A stretch of 64,000 nt of DNA from Verrucomicrobiota bacterium. GTDB lineage: Bacteria > Verrucomicrobiota > Verrucomicrobiia > Opitutales > Coraliomargaritaceae. Shown piece after piece: positions 22,262 through 30,019 of the stretch (the stretch's first letter is position 1; every line of letters begins with the position of its first letter). Location of the stretch: NCBI GenBank assembly GCA_039815375.1, contig JBCBZJ010000004.1, forward strand, positions 32,001 through 96,000, written 5' to 3'. The position numbers and the translations under genes are program-made. The notes beneath the pieces are model-generated. The model did no database searches and was not told where the DNA came from. It saw nothing but the letters and a program-made list of their open reading frames with translations.

Positions 22262-22453
22262 ATGCATCTTCACATACATATTCAAATGCCCTGCGGCAGT
22301 TATCTTTGGTCACCCATTTCCCCAAACGGGTCCGATGATCTGTTAGCGCAGAGATTTGAGAATCCCATGGATTCAACACAAGCGAGGGCTTGTAGAGAGC
22401 AGGCATTTCAACCGCGTATTGCGGCCGAATGTTTAGAGAACACTAAACGATGA
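22262..22453 (+). CDS. Putative leader peptide of the tRNA array
   Basis: 63-codon ORF (MHLHIHIQMPCG...) after TTGACT-17-CAAGTT, ending 20 nt before a terminator. Confidence 0.45.
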   Translation: MHLHIHIQMPCGSYLWSPISPNGSDDLLAQRFENPMDSTQARACREQAFQPRIAAECLENTKR

Positions 22454-22473
22454 AATACCTGAAAGACTTTCTT

Positions 22474-22510
22474 AAAGCCCAAGCCGCAGACACCGCGCTT
22501 GGGCTTTTTT
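22474..22510 (+). terminator. Attenuator-type terminator upstream of the tRNA array
   Basis: aaagcccaagc...gcttgggctttttt. Confidence 0.8.
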
Positions 22511-22653
22511 GTTTCCACCAACTACAGTTTACCGGTCTCCCTTCCACCACAGCGAAGGGTCAAACGTCACGTAAATGGCGTCCAAACCACGACTCAGAAT
22601 TTGATCGTGAGAGGGGCGAAACAGCCGTCCTTGGTGGAAACAATTAACTTTAT

Positions 22654-22730
22654 GGTAGTTATCGCTTAATGGCTAAAGCACCTGACTGTGACTCAGGGGA
22701 TCTAGAGTTCGATTCTCAGTAACTACCCCA
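22654..22730 (+). tRNA. tRNA-His(GTG)
   Basis: G-1, gtagtta/taactac, C73, CCA; cctga ctGTGac tcagg. Confidence 0.85.
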
Positions 22731-22740
22731 ACCTTTCTAA

Positions 22741-22815
22741 GCCTCTGTCTTCCAACAGATAGGATAGCCGATTGTCTACCGGCAGATGTGGGTGCGATTC
22801 CCATCAGAGGCGCCA
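22741..22815 (+). tRNA. tRNA-Asp(GTC)
   Basis: gcctctg/cagaggc, G73, CCA; loop ttGTCta; T-loop TGCGATT. Confidence 0.8.
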
Positions 22816-22823
22816 TTTTTTAT

Positions 22824-22899
22824 TCGGTGGTAGTTCAATAGGTAGAACGTGGCCCTGTTAAGGCCAATGTTGCAGGATCGTAGCCTGCCCACCGAGCCA
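22824..22899 (+). tRNA. tRNA-Asn(GTT)
   Basis: tcggtgg/ccaccga, G73, CCA; tggcc ctGTTaa ggcca; T-loop ATCGTAG. Confidence 0.85.
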
Positions 22900-22905
22900 G
22901 TTTAC

Positions 22906-22981
22906 GGGAGTGTAGTGTAGAGAGTCTGCACGTCTGGTTGAAGACCAGAAAGTCATGGTGCGATTCCATGCGCTTCCGCCA
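22906..22981 (+). tRNA. tRNA-Phe(GAA)
   Basis: gggagtg/cgcttcc, G73, CCA; tctgg ttGAAga ccaga; T-loop TGCGATT. Confidence 0.75.
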
Positions 22982-22983
22982 AC

Positions 22984-23072
22984 GGACAGGTAGAGCCGTA
23001 ATTGACAGCGGCGCCGGATTGTAAACCCGGAGCATCCATGCCTTGCAGGTTTGAGCCCTGCCCTGTCCACCA
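22984..23072 (+). tRNA. tRNA-Tyr(GTA)
   Basis: ggacagg/cctgtcc, A73, CCA; loop ttGTAaa; long variable arm; T-loop TTTGAGC. Confidence 0.8.
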
Positions 23073-23082
23073 AATTTAACAA

Positions 23083-23207
23083 CGTGGAGTGGCCAAATTA
23101 GCAAGGCTCCGGTCTTGGAGACCGGGAAACTGCAGGTGGTCCGGTTCCCTTCGTGCCCGGTCATGTCGTCACTTCGTTCCTCGGAACGAGTCCTGTCTCC
23201 GCGACCA
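23083..23207 (+). tRNA. tRNA-Pro(TGG) with a 48-nt insertion in the T-loop
   Basis: C1-G72, cgtggag/ctccgcg, A73, CCA; ccggt ctTGGag accgg; T-stem gcagg/cctgt encloses tg + 23139-23186 + cgagt. Confidence 0.8.
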
Positions 23208-23213
23208 TTTTAT

Positions 23214-23290
23214 GACCAAGTAGCCCAATCGGTAGAGGCAGCTGCCTCAGAAGCAGTTCAGTGGGGGTTCGAATCCTCTCTTGGTTACCA
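23214..23290 (+). tRNA. tRNA-Leu(CAG), short variable loop
   Basis: gaccaag/cttggtt, A73, CCA; gctgc ctCAGaa gcagt; TTCGAAT. Confidence 0.8.
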
Positions 23291-23296
23291 ATTCAA

Positions 23297-23371
23297 GCCT
23301 CATTAGTTCAACAAGTAGAACAGCCGGCTTTTACCCGGTAGGCCATGGTGCAAGTCCATGATGTGGCACCA
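23297..23371 (+). tRNA. tRNA-Lys(TTT)
   Basis: gcctcat/atgtggc (1 mismatch), CCA; gccgg ctTTTac ccggt; T-loop TGCAAGT. Confidence 0.8.
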
Positions 23372-23377
23372 ACTTGA

Positions 23378-23454
23378 AGCAGAGTAGCTCAATCAGTCAG
23401 AGCGCGGGTCTCATACGCCCGAGGTTGTGGGTGCGATTCCCATCTCTGCAACCA
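23378..23454 (+). tRNA. tRNA-Met(CAT), 1:72 mismatch (initiator-like; subtype uncertain)
   Basis: agcagag/ctctgca, A73, CCA; cgggt ctCATac gcccg. Confidence 0.75.
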
Positions 23455-23459
23455 TCTTA

Positions 23460-23531
23460 GCCCGTATCGTCTAGTAGCTAGGATCTCGCGCTTTCCACGC
23501 GATGACGCCGGTGCAAATCCGGCTACGGGTT
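23460..23531 (+). tRNA. tRNA-Glu(TTC), no encoded CCA
   Basis: gcccgta/tacgggt; tcgcg ctTTCca cgcga; T-loop TGCAAAT. Confidence 0.8.
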
Positions 23532-23538
23532 ACTTTCC

Positions 23539-23609
23539 TGCGGGATAGTGTAAGGGCCGCACAGCGAACTTTGACTCCGCTAGAGAAGGTTCGAATCCTT
23601 CTCCCGCAA
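23539..23609 (+). tRNA. tRNA-Gln(TTG), no encoded CCA
   Basis: tgcggga/tcccgca; loop ctTTGac; gaagg TTCGAAT ccttc. Confidence 0.8.
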
Positions 23610-23627
23610 TTTTCCGGCGCAGCCGGA

Positions 23628-24129
23628 GACCGCTAATTATCGCTCATAGACGCTAATGGATTGAGTCGACAGGTAGATGATTCATTCGTTAATCAAATGA
23701 CACATAACACGGAATACATGGCCGATGAAGGATACGCTCTCATCGGCGCCGCATTCGAAGTCCATCGGGAACTCGGCGGTGGCCTGAGCGAAGAAATCTA
23801 CCAAGAAAGCATAGAGATCGAACTCGGCATGCGAAATATCCCATTCAAATCGAAGGACGAACTAAGGGTCTTTTACAAGCAACAGCCCCTGAACAAGCGC
23901 TATATACCGGACCTCACCGTTTCAGGCGAGATCATCACCGAACTCAAAGCCGCTAAGGAGCTCACACACGAACATCACCGGCAACTCATCAATTACATGC
24001 GAGTCACTGAAAAAGCTGTTGGATATCTCATCAACTTCGGCCCCACAGACCAACTCGAGTGGAAGCGTTTCATCCTCAGAGACTTCATTCCTATAGAGCA
24101 TCAGCGCCTATAAGCGAGAATCAGCGGTC
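23628..24129. mobile_element. Inverted-repeat-flanked GxxExxY cassette inserted in the tRNA array
   Basis: gaccgctaattatcgctcatagacgctaat (23628-23657) and atcagcgcctataagcgagaatcagcggtc (24100-24129) are 25/30 reverse-complementary. Confidence 0.65.
23697..24113 (+). CDS. GxxExxY family protein (PD-(D/E)xK nuclease fold)
   Basis: IGAAFEVHRELGGGLSEEIYQE, YIPDL, ITELKA, QLINY, GYLINFG. Confidence 0.9.
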   Translation: MTHNTEYMADEGYALIGAAFEVHRELGGGLSEEIYQESIEIELGMRNIPFKSKDELRVFYKQQPLNKRYIPDLTVSGEIITELKAAKELTHEHHRQLINYMRVTEKAVGYLINFGPTDQLEWKRFILRDFIPIEHQRL

Positions 24130-24167
24130 GCCAGCTCAGCTGGCACATACAGATCACTTTTACAAAT

Positions 24168-24244
24168 TTCCGGTCGGCGGCGCAATGCTCTCAGGCTTTC
24201 TGTCAGGTCATTGCGTTCCGCATCGACGTTCTAGACGGAAACCA
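24168..24244 (+). ncRNA. tRNA-sized rod hairpin ending in ACCA
   Basis: Nested helices ttccg/cggaa, gtcg/cgac, gcgg/ccgc, cgcaatg/cattgcg, followed by A-CCA. Confidence 0.55.
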
Positions 24245-24245
24245 T

Positions 24246-24317
24246 GCAAACATAGCCAAATGGTAAGGCATCCTGCATCACAGGAAAGATGCCGGTTCGA
24301 ATCCGGCTGATTGCACC
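24246..24317 (+). tRNA. tRNA-like gene with a 5-nt anticodon loop (identity undetermined)
   Basis: Canonical D arm (tagccaaatggtaaggc) and T arm (gccgg TTCGAAT ccggc); tcctg catca cagga. Confidence 0.7.
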
Positions 24318-24318
24318 G

Positions 24319-24392
24319 ATACTGTTAGCTCAGATAGGTAGAGCAGTTGACTGAAACTCAACTTGTCCCGGGTTCAATTCCCGGACAGTAAA
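24319..24392 (+). tRNA. Second tRNA-Phe(GAA)-like gene, 1:72 mismatch, no CCA
   Basis: tagctcagataggtagagc; gttga ctGAAac tcaac; ccggg TTCAATT cccgg. Confidence 0.7.
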
Positions 24393-24393
24393 A

Positions 24394-24467
24394 TGGATAG
24401 TAGAGCAAATGGTTAGCTCACAGGATTAAGGTTCCTGCGGATGGAGGTTCGAATCCTCCCTACCCGA
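24394..24467 (+). tRNA. tRNA-like gene with AAG anticodon (nominal Leu; possibly pseudo)
   Basis: gagc/gctc D stem; cagga ttAAGgt tcctg; ggagg TTCGAAT cctcc; A-C mismatch in the acceptor stem. Confidence 0.65.
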
Positions 24468-24792
24468 CAAAGGGCTTGGCCGCCCTCTAAAGGCCTCCAA
24501 AACCGCCCAAGGAGAGAACGGGCGACTCGTGAAAGCCAGGCACAGCCACCACATCATGCGGGTGGATGCGCCAGCAGTTTCACCACCTGCGAGGATGCGG
24601 ATACCGGATATCTCAAACCTCAGGCCTACGAAGTGAAGAACCGGCCCATCGATCTGCACCGCATGTCGACCGGATCACCGCAAACTCATTTTGAAACGCC
24701 TCAGGCGCGGAATTCCTTAAGCATCATCCCGTGGTCCGAAGCTGTGGCGGATCGTCTCATCCGAACTCTCTGCGGGCACAACTTTCATAAAG

Positions 24793-24918: not shown

Positions 24919-26034
24919 ATGCTATTCTTCAAATACATCAACATCCCGTATGAGTATGTCGGTTTGAAATTCCGCGATGGCCAATTCGTTGAACTGCTCC
25001 AGTCCGGACGCCAATGGATCTTCGATCGATTCGGCCGCACTGTCGTCAACATTGTATGGCAAGGCGACCCATGGATCGAAATTTCCAAGGCCCAACTGAA
25101 GCAGCTTCGCGAAAACGACGCCGTCAACGGATATGCCGAATTCATCGATATGAAGGACAATCAACGCGCCCTCGTTTGGCTCGATGGTCGTTTCTATGGC
25201 ATCCTCAAACCAGGCCTCTACGGCTACTGGAAATCTCCAGTTAAAGTTAAAATCGAAATCGTGGAACTAGAAGACGTCCGTTTTCAACACGCACAATTCG
25301 ATATCATCACTAAAGACAAAGACGTCGCCGTCCACCTGAACATTCAGGACATCGAAGATGGCAAGGTTGGCGTCCTCTACGTCGATGGTGATTTCGTCGA
25401 GATACTCAAACCAGGTCGTTACGCATTCTGGAAGAACGTGGGCAACGTCCGCATCTATCAGTATGACCTACGTGAAAAAGTCCTCGATGTAACCGGCCAG
25501 GAAATCATGACTGCCGATAAGGTCACTCTACGACTCAATGCAGTCCTAAGCTACCGACTGGATGATGTCCGCAAGGTTGCTGAATCCGCAAAAGACGTCG
25601 AACAGGCGCTCTACCGTGAGATTCAGCTCATCATCCGCGCTGAAGTCGGCGGCCGCACGCTCGACCAGCTACTGGCAGACAAGTCCGCCGTCGCCAACGA
25701 AGCACTCAACGCAATTCGAGGGAAAGCAGCCGGCTATGGAATCGAAGTCAAAGGTCTGGGCATCCGTGATGTCATCCTACCGGGTGACATGAAGGAACTG
25801 CTCAACCAAGTCATCGAGGCCGAGAAAGCGGCCCAGGCCAACAACATCAAGCGTCGCGAAGAAACTGCTGCCATGCGCAGCCAGCTCAACTCTGCGAAAC
25901 TGATCGAGCAAAACCCAACCCTCATGCGTCTGCGTGAACTCGAGTCTGTCGAAAAAATCACTGAAAAGGCTAACCTGCAAATCTTCGTCGGAGATGGACA
26001 GGACCTGACTAAGCGAATCGTCAAACTCATCTAG
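24919..26034 (+). CDS. Slipin (SPFH/band 7) family protein
   Basis: Three N-terminal G.F...L.PG repeats; QEIMTADKVTLRLN; RDVILPG; RREETAA.RS. Confidence 0.9.
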   Translation: MLFFKYINIPYEYVGLKFRDGQFVELLQSGRQWIFDRFGRTVVNIVWQGDPWIEISKAQLKQLRENDAVNGYAEFIDMKDNQRALVWLDGRFYGILKPGLYGYWKSPVKVKIEIVELEDVRFQHAQFDIITKDKDVAVHLNIQDIEDGKVGVLYVDGDFVEILKPGRYAFWKNVGNVRIYQYDLREKVLDVTGQEIMTADKVTLRLNAVLSYRLDDVRKVAESAKDVEQALYREIQLIIRAEVGGRTLDQLLADKSAVANEALNAIRGKAAGYGIEVKGLGIRDVILPGDMKELLNQVIEAEKAAQANNIKRREETAAMRSQLNSAKLIEQNPTLMRLRELESVEKITEKANLQIFVGDGQDLTKRIVKLI

Positions 26035-28621: not shown

Positions 28622-30019
28622 ATGAACGCAGAAGACCTACGTCGTTGGGGTATCCCTCCAGGAGATGCCATGCGACTCACATTCCAAATCATCAAACGGC
28701 TATTTAATGAATCGATTCCAGCCGAGACTGTTCGCTCGCAGCTACTCGCAGTGATTCATCAACCATCCGCGCACCTCAACGATTCGCATTGGAGTGAACT
28801 CGCTCAGATGCTTGATGAGATCACTATCTTCGAGCCACGTGCCGAGCCAGCACCTTACCATCAATGGGGTAAGGATCTTGATGCAAACGCCATCGAACAA
28901 ATGAGGAATGCCTGCCAACTGCCCATCGCAGTGGCTGGAGCACTCATGCCTGATGCTCACCTAGGATACGGACTACCAATCGGAGGCGTCCTCGCAACAA
29001 AAGGCGCAGTCATCCCATACGCAGTCGGTGTCGACATCGCCTGTCGTATGAAGCTGACCGTGCTCGACCTGCCGCTCAAGCACTTCGAGAAACGCACCAA
29101 GATCGACCGCTTGAAAAAAGCGATCGAAGCTGAAACGCGTTTCGGAACCGGTGCCCGTTTCCAGAAAGATGCCATCCGCAACCACAAAGTTATGGATGCC
29201 GACTGGTCGATCACCAAGGTGACGGCCGCAGCTAAGGACAAAGCTTGGACACAACTCGGAACTTCGGGAAGCGGCAACCACTTCGTCGAGTTCGGTATCT
29301 TCGAAATCGAGACAGATGAACTAGGGCTGGGACCTGGCCAGTACATCGCCCTCCTCTCCCATAGCGGAAGCCGAGGCGCAGGTGCAGCCGTTGCCGGGCA
29401 CTACTCGAAGCTCGCCCGCGAAGCTCATCCAGAGCTACCGGACAAGCTGAAGCATCTGGCATGGCTCGAAATGAATAAGGAGTCCGGTCAAGCATACTGG
29501 GCAGCGATGAACCTCATGGGCGATTACGCGGCAGCCAACCATAGCTGTATCCATAAACATATCGCACGTCACCTCGGAGCCGAAGTCCTCCTCGATGTTG
29601 AGAACCACCATAACTTCGCGTGGAAGGAAGAGCACCTCGGCGACGAGCTCATCGTTCATCGCAAAGGGGCAACACCAGCGGGTAAAGGCATAATGGGAAT
29701 CATCCCTGGATCGATGGCTAGCCCAGCCTACCTCGTCCGAGGAAAAGGCAAGGCAGAGTCCCTCAACTCCGCATCTCACGGAGCTGGACGTGTCATGTCC
29801 CGCCGAAAGGCAGCTGAACACCTTCGCTGGGAAGATGCGAACAAGCTCCTTAAAGCACAGCAAGTTGAGCTCATCTCGGCTGGCCTCGATGAAGTCCCGG
29901 CCGTCTACAAAGATATCGAAACCGTGATGGACGCCCAAAGCGACCTCGTCGAAAAACTCGGCCGCTTTCATCCACGACTCGTCAAGATGGCACCTCCGGG
30001 AGAACGTCCTGAAGATTAA
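28622..30019 (+). CDS. rtcB: RNA 3'-phosphate/5'-OH ligase RtcB
   Basis: MPDAHLGYGLPIG, GVDIACR, GSGNHF, HSGSRG, NHHN, HRKGAT, PGSM, SHGAGR, DE.P..YK. Confidence 0.95.
   Translation: MNAEDLRRWGIPPGDAMRLTFQIIKRLFNESIPAETVRSQLLAVIHQPSAHLNDSHWSELAQMLDEITIFEPRAEPAPYHQWGKDLDANAIEQMRNACQLPIAVAGALMPDAHLGYGLPIGGVLATKGAVIPYAVGVDIACRMKLTVLDLPLKHFEKRTKIDRLKKAIEAETRFGTGARFQKDAIRNHKVMDADWSITKVTAAAKDKAWTQLGTSGSGNHFVEFGIFEIETDELGLGPGQYIALLSHSGSRGAGAAVAGHYSKLAREAHPELPDKLKHLAWLEMNKESGQAYWAAMNLMGDYAAANHSCIHKHIARHLGAEVLLDVENHHNFAWKEEHLGDELIVHRKGATPAGKGIMGIIPGSMASPAYLVRGKGKAESLNSASHGAGRVMSRRKAAEHLRWEDANKLLKAQQVELISAGLDEVPAVYKDIETVMDAQSDLVEKLGRFHPRLVKMAPPGERPED

Follow-up and report, generated by a model that had tools for sequence, protein, structure and literature searches.

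A spare tRNA-Pro(TGG) gene with a dispersed twin-hairpin repeat of 49 nt, likely mobile DNA, in its T-loop, in a member of the Verrucomicrobiota

Several described systems of small repeats and of supernumerary tRNA genes resemble the locus reported here. In Escherichia coli, the tRNA-linked repeats (TLRs; tyrT repeats/RtT) are units, often in tandem, which lie behind tRNA genes, end in a copy of the 3' end of the upstream tRNA and share 18-19 bp with its mature 3' end; their function and origin are described as unknown in the passages of PMC8144298 that deal with them. The Rickettsia palindromic elements (RPEs), single long stem-loops of 105-146 bp, are small non-coding palindromes found in structural RNA genes (those of tmRNA and M1 RNA) and in frame in protein genes (PMC2229807). 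The REP/REPIN/BIME repeats associated with RAYT, together with the GTAG/CGTC repeats, are short dispersed palindromes which also form inverted doublets and are likely recognised as single-stranded DNA, and GTAG repeats have been reported in Opitutus terrae (PMC3733652). The Ssn nucleases, small proteins of the GIY-YIG type, cleave single-stranded DNA at repeats which form hairpins (SRM/NTS), and have been described in a study whose main text does not contain the word 'tRNA' (PMC11893778). Finally, the L-arrays, which occur in Verrucomicrobia among others, are supernumerary, patchily distributed tRNA arrays with rtcB as a recurrent neighbour, whose induction accompanies theirs and for which a role in the repair of cleaved tRNAs has been proposed; 3 of 26 array genes in Anabaena have been called pseudogenes, and the term 'T-loop' does not occur in the main text of the article (PMC8421152).

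The window analysed here, which is the whole stretch of 64,000 nt, holds a tRNA array that resembles the L-arrays in being supernumerary, patchy, verrucomicrobial and close to rtcB, but is shorter, with 14 genes, and has an insertion in one T-loop. The reading favoured, at a probability of about 0.78, is that this insert is a dispersed 49-nt twin-hairpin repeat replacing one T, likely mobile DNA lodged in the T-loop of a spare tRNA-Pro gene and likely inactivating it. The features concerned are the following, in window coordinates:

22655..24468, + strand: supernumerary array of 14 tRNA-like genes, including Asp, Tyr and the interrupted Pro (ARAGORN and cmscan; orthologous arrays in genomes G017 and G077)
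23083..23137, + strand: 5' part of tRNA-Pro(TGG), position 1 to T54, with the D-loop A18-G19 (sequence; G077 orthologue)
23138..23186, + strand: 49-nt twin-hairpin repeat occupying the site of a single base, which according to the family rule was T55 (profile, BLAST, alignment, 14 of 14 empty alleles)
23149..23153, - strand: tip of the first hairpin, C-GAA-G on the antisense strand, partly decayed here (alignment)
23171..23177, - strand: tip of the second hairpin, AC-GAA-GT antisense, a paired variant of the family consensus that is also present in other copies (alignment)
23187..23207, + strand: 3' part of tRNA-Pro(TGG), C56 to CCA (sequence)
23214..23290, + strand: array tRNA-Leu(CAG), empty here and element-filled in G077 (sequence comparison)
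23661..24113, + strand: GxxExxY (PD-(D/E)XK) ORF inside the array (PF13366, TIGR04256)
24919..26034, + strand: SPFH/Band 7 gene, after the array in all three genomes (profile; comparison)
28622..30019, + strand: RtcB RNA ligase gene, array neighbour (PF01139)

Read from the sequence, the tRNA-Pro(TGG) gene is 125 nt long (23083-23207, + strand) and has a 7-bp acceptor stem with C1-G72 and one G.U pair, a 3-bp D-stem, a 5-bp anticodon stem, A73 and CCA. Its T-stem (23132-23136/23192-23196) closes 55 nt in place of a 7-nt T-loop, an excess of 48 nt. The first-pass annotation had considered the acceptor, D and anticodon arms, the proline identity elements and CCA all intact, which holds for the stems, C1-G72, A73 and CCA, but it overlooked a variable region of 6 nt and an anticodon loop with A37-G38, where both housekeeping tRNA-Pro genes compared have G37. 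As it stands, the gene is called neither by ARAGORN nor by cmscan, and once the insert is scored out ARAGORN at a relaxed score calls a tRNA-Pro(TGG). A separate intact tRNA-Pro(TGG) is located on contig C52 of the same genome.

Eight different 48-nt deletions each yield a 7-nt T-loop in this gene; one of them, that of 23139-23186, had been proposed to restore the loop TGCGAGT. Empty alleles place the element at 23138-23186 instead. An empty counterpart could be found for 14 of the 95 distinct flank pairs, and in all 14 exactly one base, always a T, lies between the flanks. The same one-T replacement distinguishes the array tRNA-Leu(CAG) of the window (empty, with T54 T55 C56) from its filled counterpart in G077. 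In a phage gene that is filled in two loci (L148/L149) and empty in a third (L150, 88% identical), the element follows a C, replaces a T and stands in frame, adding 16 codons. Since the base before the element is a C in the phage gene and a T is replaced in the empty alleles, the first G belongs to the element itself; therefore, the present copy corresponds to 23138-23186, with a net gain of 48 nt. The 48-nt insertion originally described is thus correct as an excess of loop length, although the element itself comprises 49 nt in place of one base. According to this comparison of sequences, the removal of 48 nt leaves the G of the element without restoring the base predicted by the family rule, and the G that had been taken as tRNA position 55 in the shortened loop would be supplied by the repeat. 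TGCGAGT is probably not the ancestral T-loop of the gene, because the empty alleles show a 49-nt G...A element standing for one T.

The third option in the first-pass annotation, that of a repeat insertion, is the one supported, given that the insert is a dispersed repeat of its own genome and of the bacterial family. A plain BLAST of the 48 nt found no second copy in the own genome (best other match with E 0.099, inside a gene), because the copies there have diverged and a profile is needed. BLAST over 61 genomes gave many matches limited to the insert, and these seeded a profile with which nhmmer found 25 matches in the own genome at E<=0.001; a search for further genomic copies had been suggested at the outset, their presence being listed among the outcomes that would speak against the initial proposals. 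As judged by eye, eight of the 25 copies are at tRNA or tmRNA genes, 13 within one larger dispersed repeat and four elsewhere. This larger repeat, of more than 200 nt, has 13 copies in the own genome (contigs C4, C11, C14, C36, C37, C40, C48, C51, C54, C59 and C62), each with a whole or partial twin-hairpin element.

Beyond the own genome, T-arm plus insert was matched in 48 of 101 family genomes, and a strict pattern in 13 of 401 genomes of the order, belonging to three families, with no match of the reversed control among those listed. The repeat was also found at 62 metagenome loci and two viral loci. The metagenome and GTDB patterns required T-arm-like flanks, so that the pooled set overstates how often the copies are linked to tRNAs, a bias of which the own-genome count is free; the pooled copies are related and not independent. 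No match was obtained in annotated phages, plasmids gave a single 22-nt chance match, a pattern search detected no viral copy of the interrupted Pro gene, and Rfam holds no family covering the insert. Copies measure 40-61 nt; their ends and their centre are constant, whereas the two hairpins are exchangeable (alignment A1, in which locus L149 was disregarded). They reside in intergenic DNA, in tandem repeats, in frame in the phage gene and antisense to tRNA D-loops, as in two tRNA-Ser genes of the own genome, where the repeat is on the antisense strand of the D-loop at TT^C. No description of this repeat family appeared in the literature searched, largely open-access articles. A second tRNA-linked repeat type was seen at L053, L061, L142 and L079 (38-170), and one of its copies is a sub-threshold RtT match; at L053 and L061, the twin-hairpin element is inserted into a T-loop-like motif of this second type.

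The copies adopt two modes: either they directly replace a T, or they are situated behind an intact tRNA or tmRNA gene and are fused to a duplicate of its 3' end starting at C56. Among 98 non-redundant copies, 53 go with a 3'-end duplicate, and the original upstream has TT directly before the duplicated part; these, unlike the present copy, which interrupts the gene itself, have the TLR layout of a unit behind a tRNA with a copy of the 3' end of that tRNA as its terminus. In 11 copies the right flank resembles a T-loop and no duplicate was detected, four lie behind another element, two have other duplicates and 23 are elsewhere. The remaining five were scored as direct tRNA interruptions, three of them true and two arising from false folds of ARAGORN at relaxed score: a 3' duplicate of Leu(AAG) lies upstream in L074, and in the case of L097 there is a match to L099/L121, which are Leu(TAG) duplicates. 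The true interruptions of whole tRNA bodies, namely the Pro gene described here and the Pro and Leu genes of G077, are all in arrays, and housekeeping genes for both Pro(TGG) and Leu(CAG) are retained in all three array genomes. None of the 98 copies was found to interrupt directly a tRNA gene present in a single copy. The duplicates begin at C56 of the intact tRNA or tmRNA and run for 11-152 nt, past CCA and into the host trailer (n=54), their sources being Leu (21), Gly (6), Arg (6), Asp (5), Met (4), Val (2), Gln (2), tmRNA (4) and uncalled (4). Copies in this mode often have a further left hairpin after a short reverse complement of positions 57-64; in 48 such copies, which are related, a mean of 5.6 of 8 positions match, compared with 4.9 after shuffling (0 of 2000 shuffles).

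Compared with the TLRs, the duplicates described above differ in their start and in their extension into the trailer, and the 49-nt core is also able to insert by itself; an RtT match over the element was found in none of seven loci, the sub-threshold match in L079 being on a different repeat. Its shorter length, the twin hairpin, the one-T replacement and the preference for T-loops separate the element from the RPEs. As in the REP systems, inverted doublets exist (L185), but the terminal GTAG/CGTC tag is missing, with GTAG absent from both strands and CGTC only internal, and none of the three Y1 transposase loci of the own genome has a copy beside it. The degenerate SRM motif is present in 0 of 98 copies, and only one of 143 element-bearing loci (L109) has a GIY-YIG gene beside the element. 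Unlike MITEs, with their TIR and short TSD, the element has only short imperfect inverted ends, loses one T without duplication in the direct mode and duplicates 11-152 nt in the other. By analogy with these systems, it is a palindrome that acts like those of RPE and REP type and builds TLR-like units, and lies outside the REP, SRM and classical MITE definitions.

The hairpins point to DNA rather than RNA as the conserved structure. The 89 distinct copies contain 130 triloops, of which 66 read TNC in the sense orientation (GNA on the antisense strand, with all four bases at N), against a single sense GNA. GNA triloops with a C-G closing pair have an unusual stability when the DNA is single-stranded, and therefore the conserved structure is likely that of the antisense DNA strand. 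The two CTTCG motifs reported initially are indeed at 23149-53 and 23172-76, and correspond to the antisense hairpin loops read from the opposite strand. In the case of the closing helix, TCCG (23140-43) and CGGA (23182-85) are complementary as stated, but the helix is missing from the predicted fold. The insert RNA folds no better than shuffled sequences (z +0.97), the predicted fold of the full-length 125 nt has no cloverleaf, and that of T-arm plus insert keeps the T-stem.

The array is present in 3 of 101 family genomes (the own genome, G017 and G077) and in 3 of 401 phylum genomes, and its genes are supernumerary, housekeeping isoacceptors being present. It is followed by the SPFH gene, two unassigned ORFs and rtcB. 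The Pro gene has been lost from the G017 array. In G077, the orthologous Pro, the only one found, has the element at the same site, an outcome for which the first-pass annotation had suggested looking; it has a G18-G19 D-loop and has decayed, with the 5' strand of its T-stem destroyed and TCA in place of CCA. No empty orthologous Pro allele was detected in the 101 family and 401 phylum genomes searched. The two Pro inserts show 8 differences in 49 nt; 22 further copies have this length, of which 13 are closer, and the hairpin variant common to both also occurs elsewhere. Regarding the elbow, the three arrays combine GG with T55 in 16 genes, GA with T55-T56 in three, AG with G55 in 13 and AG with A55 in one (raw tally, 33 of 35 concordant; the Glu and Gln genes of G017 were misread as GG and are AG by eye). 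In all 14 array genes with A18, position 55 is a purine and never T, so the match between AG D-loop and TGC T-loop noticed at first is a real trend of the arrays. Orthologous His, Gln and Glu genes of the arrays (window, L033 and L038) switch between GG/TTC and AG/TGC (or TAC) elbows, both sides changing together.

According to the mechanism proposed, the element would move as single-stranded DNA, recognised via its antisense GNA mini-hairpins, and a trans-acting nuclease (a small GIY-YIG or HUH protein being the candidate) would cut T^C sites, often in a T-arm. The element would be joined to C56 with loss of T55, and repair may or may not duplicate the downstream DNA. Insertions in essential tRNAs would survive only with an intact copy upstream, and direct ones only in dispensable genes. 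The G19-C56 elbow has an established role in RNase P and ribosome contacts; an extension at 55/56 would block it, leaving an RNA that is poorly matured or used. Against this reading, a T55 before insertion would break the A18/purine-55 rule of the arrays. Given the A18 of the present gene, either the target was a G55, for which the 14 empty alleles offer no example, or drift, recombination or selection altered the D-loop once the element was in place. Other observations on the same side are that the interrupted Pro and the G077 Leu(CAG) are otherwise well paired, that the only orthologous Pro is also filled, and that the presence of RtcB tracks interrupted genes in the three arrays.

The last observation leads to the mini-intron suggested in the first-pass annotation, which had pointed to an RNA ligase 5.4 kb away; an rtcB gene (PF01139, E 8e-87) does begin 5415 nt downstream. 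In a protein-spliced mini-intron, a nuclease would remove 48 nt and RtcB would join the halves, leaving the G of the element as position 55 facing A18. Such a removal gives a TGC loop like that of five neighbours and matching A18, the G077 orthologue has its insert at the same site, and RtcB adjoins both arrays that hold interrupted genes, whereas the search of G017, with no interrupted gene in its array, did not find it (n=3, related). Nevertheless, the element is mostly outside tRNA bodies, on either strand and also in a coding gene; G014 and G030 have many copies though RtcB was not found in them; the EndA domain (PF01974) was found in none of the three array genomes (99-100% complete) with a control positive in four archaea; both interrupted genes of G077 have G18; and the hairpin signature is antisense. 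Inspection of the predicted folds by eye showed no bulge-helix-bulge at the junctions. Group I and II introns have a catalytic core of about 200 nt or more, and those of group I end in G; the insert, which had rightly been judged too short for either, has 48-49 nt, ends in A and has no Rfam intron match at E<=1. Moreover, rtcB generally accompanies arrays of this kind and is co-regulated with them (PMC8421152), which explains its presence without an intron. Splicing is thus very unlikely. Only slightly less improbable is that a mobile hairpin has turned into a removable T-loop insert, with 48 of the 49 nt lost (at the RNA level with RtcB, or at the DNA level), TTC becoming the TGC typical of these arrays and A18 being compensatory. 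If true, a mobile repeat would here be giving rise, in a stress-induced array, to a bacterial tRNA intron spliced by proteins or, alternatively, would provide a mechanism for the GG/TTC to AG/TGC elbow switch.

An extension of the elbow that is tolerated, in which the insert is likewise of mobile origin and the 125-nt RNA nonetheless undergoes processing and charging, is unlikely, though several features fit it. Stems, A73 and CCA are retained here and in the G077 Leu(CAG), the T-stem persists in the fold of T-arm plus insert, A18 could be a later adjustment to the G of the element, and a precedent exists in the Rickettsia palindromes, which tmRNA and RNase P RNA are believed to tolerate (PMC2229807). 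What argues against it is the lack of direct insertions in sole-copy tRNAs among the 98 copies, the decay (G077) or loss (G017) of the orthologous Pro, the full-length fold devoid of a cloverleaf, the G18 kept by the G077 Leu opposite the mismatched G of the element, and the role of G19-C56 mentioned above. With regard to integrases, islands that target tRNA genes leave an intact gene and a displaced 3' fragment, and this arrangement is shown by most copies. Still, an attachment-site scar of an integrase-mobilised island recombined in the T-loop is extremely improbable, since the duplicates start at C56 and extend past CCA into the host's own trailer, no integrase was seen by eye among the ORFs beside the copies inspected, and direct T replacements occur in non-tRNA DNA.

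If the insert is indeed mobile DNA in a spare gene, an apparent bacterial tRNA mini-intron would be explained as a mobile repeat with an exact junction rule. The same repeat makes TLR-like 3'-end duplications, and the origin of the E. coli TLRs has been open since 1978, so that it would offer a concrete substrate for an enzyme search. It would also show why tRNA finders miss such genes, and suggest that arrays of spare tRNA genes are sinks for small repeats.

As for the mobiliser, an enzyme of the Ssn GIY-YIG type is a reasonable lead by analogy, because such enzymes cut single-stranded hairpin repeats (PMC11893778). Among 16 GIY-YIG loci, there was one partial match to the element profile. 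Small stand-alone GIY-YIG ORFs were seen directly behind tRNA or tmRNA genes at L064, L109, L133, L142 and L144, some with duplicated 3' ends. A Y1 fragment is located at the edge of one element locus, about 1.1 kb from the copy in L097. DUF559 proteins were also considered and rejected, as they are absent from the own genome and the three genes found have no copy beside them.

Several other features of the array were recorded. Its leader (22280-22660) has 85% mean column identity among the three genomes and no Rfam match, and contains a terminator-like hairpin (~22480-22515) and a long-range complementary pair around ~130 conserved nt; an attenuator or an undescribed RNA is possible. Default ARAGORN misses the array Asp(GTC) at 22741-22816 and Tyr(GTA) at 22984-23072, the latter with a GA D-loop and a TTT T-loop. 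Two array tRNAs with Leu anticodons, at 23214-23290 (CAG) and 24394-24468 (AAG), do not have a long variable arm, and their identity is uncertain. In the distal sub-array (24246-24468; L027, L035), orthologous tRNA bodies differ in anticodon among the three arrays (a 5-nt loop here, TCA in G017 and TAT in G077; GAA, CAT and a 6-nt loop). It is flanked by non-coding stretches (24140-24245 and 24470-24620) that look conserved by eye in the three arrays and match no Rfam family. Other repeats lie between the array genes of G017 and G077, and a different palindrome of ~25 nt interrupts the 3' acceptor strand of the array tRNA-Asn of G077 (L035).
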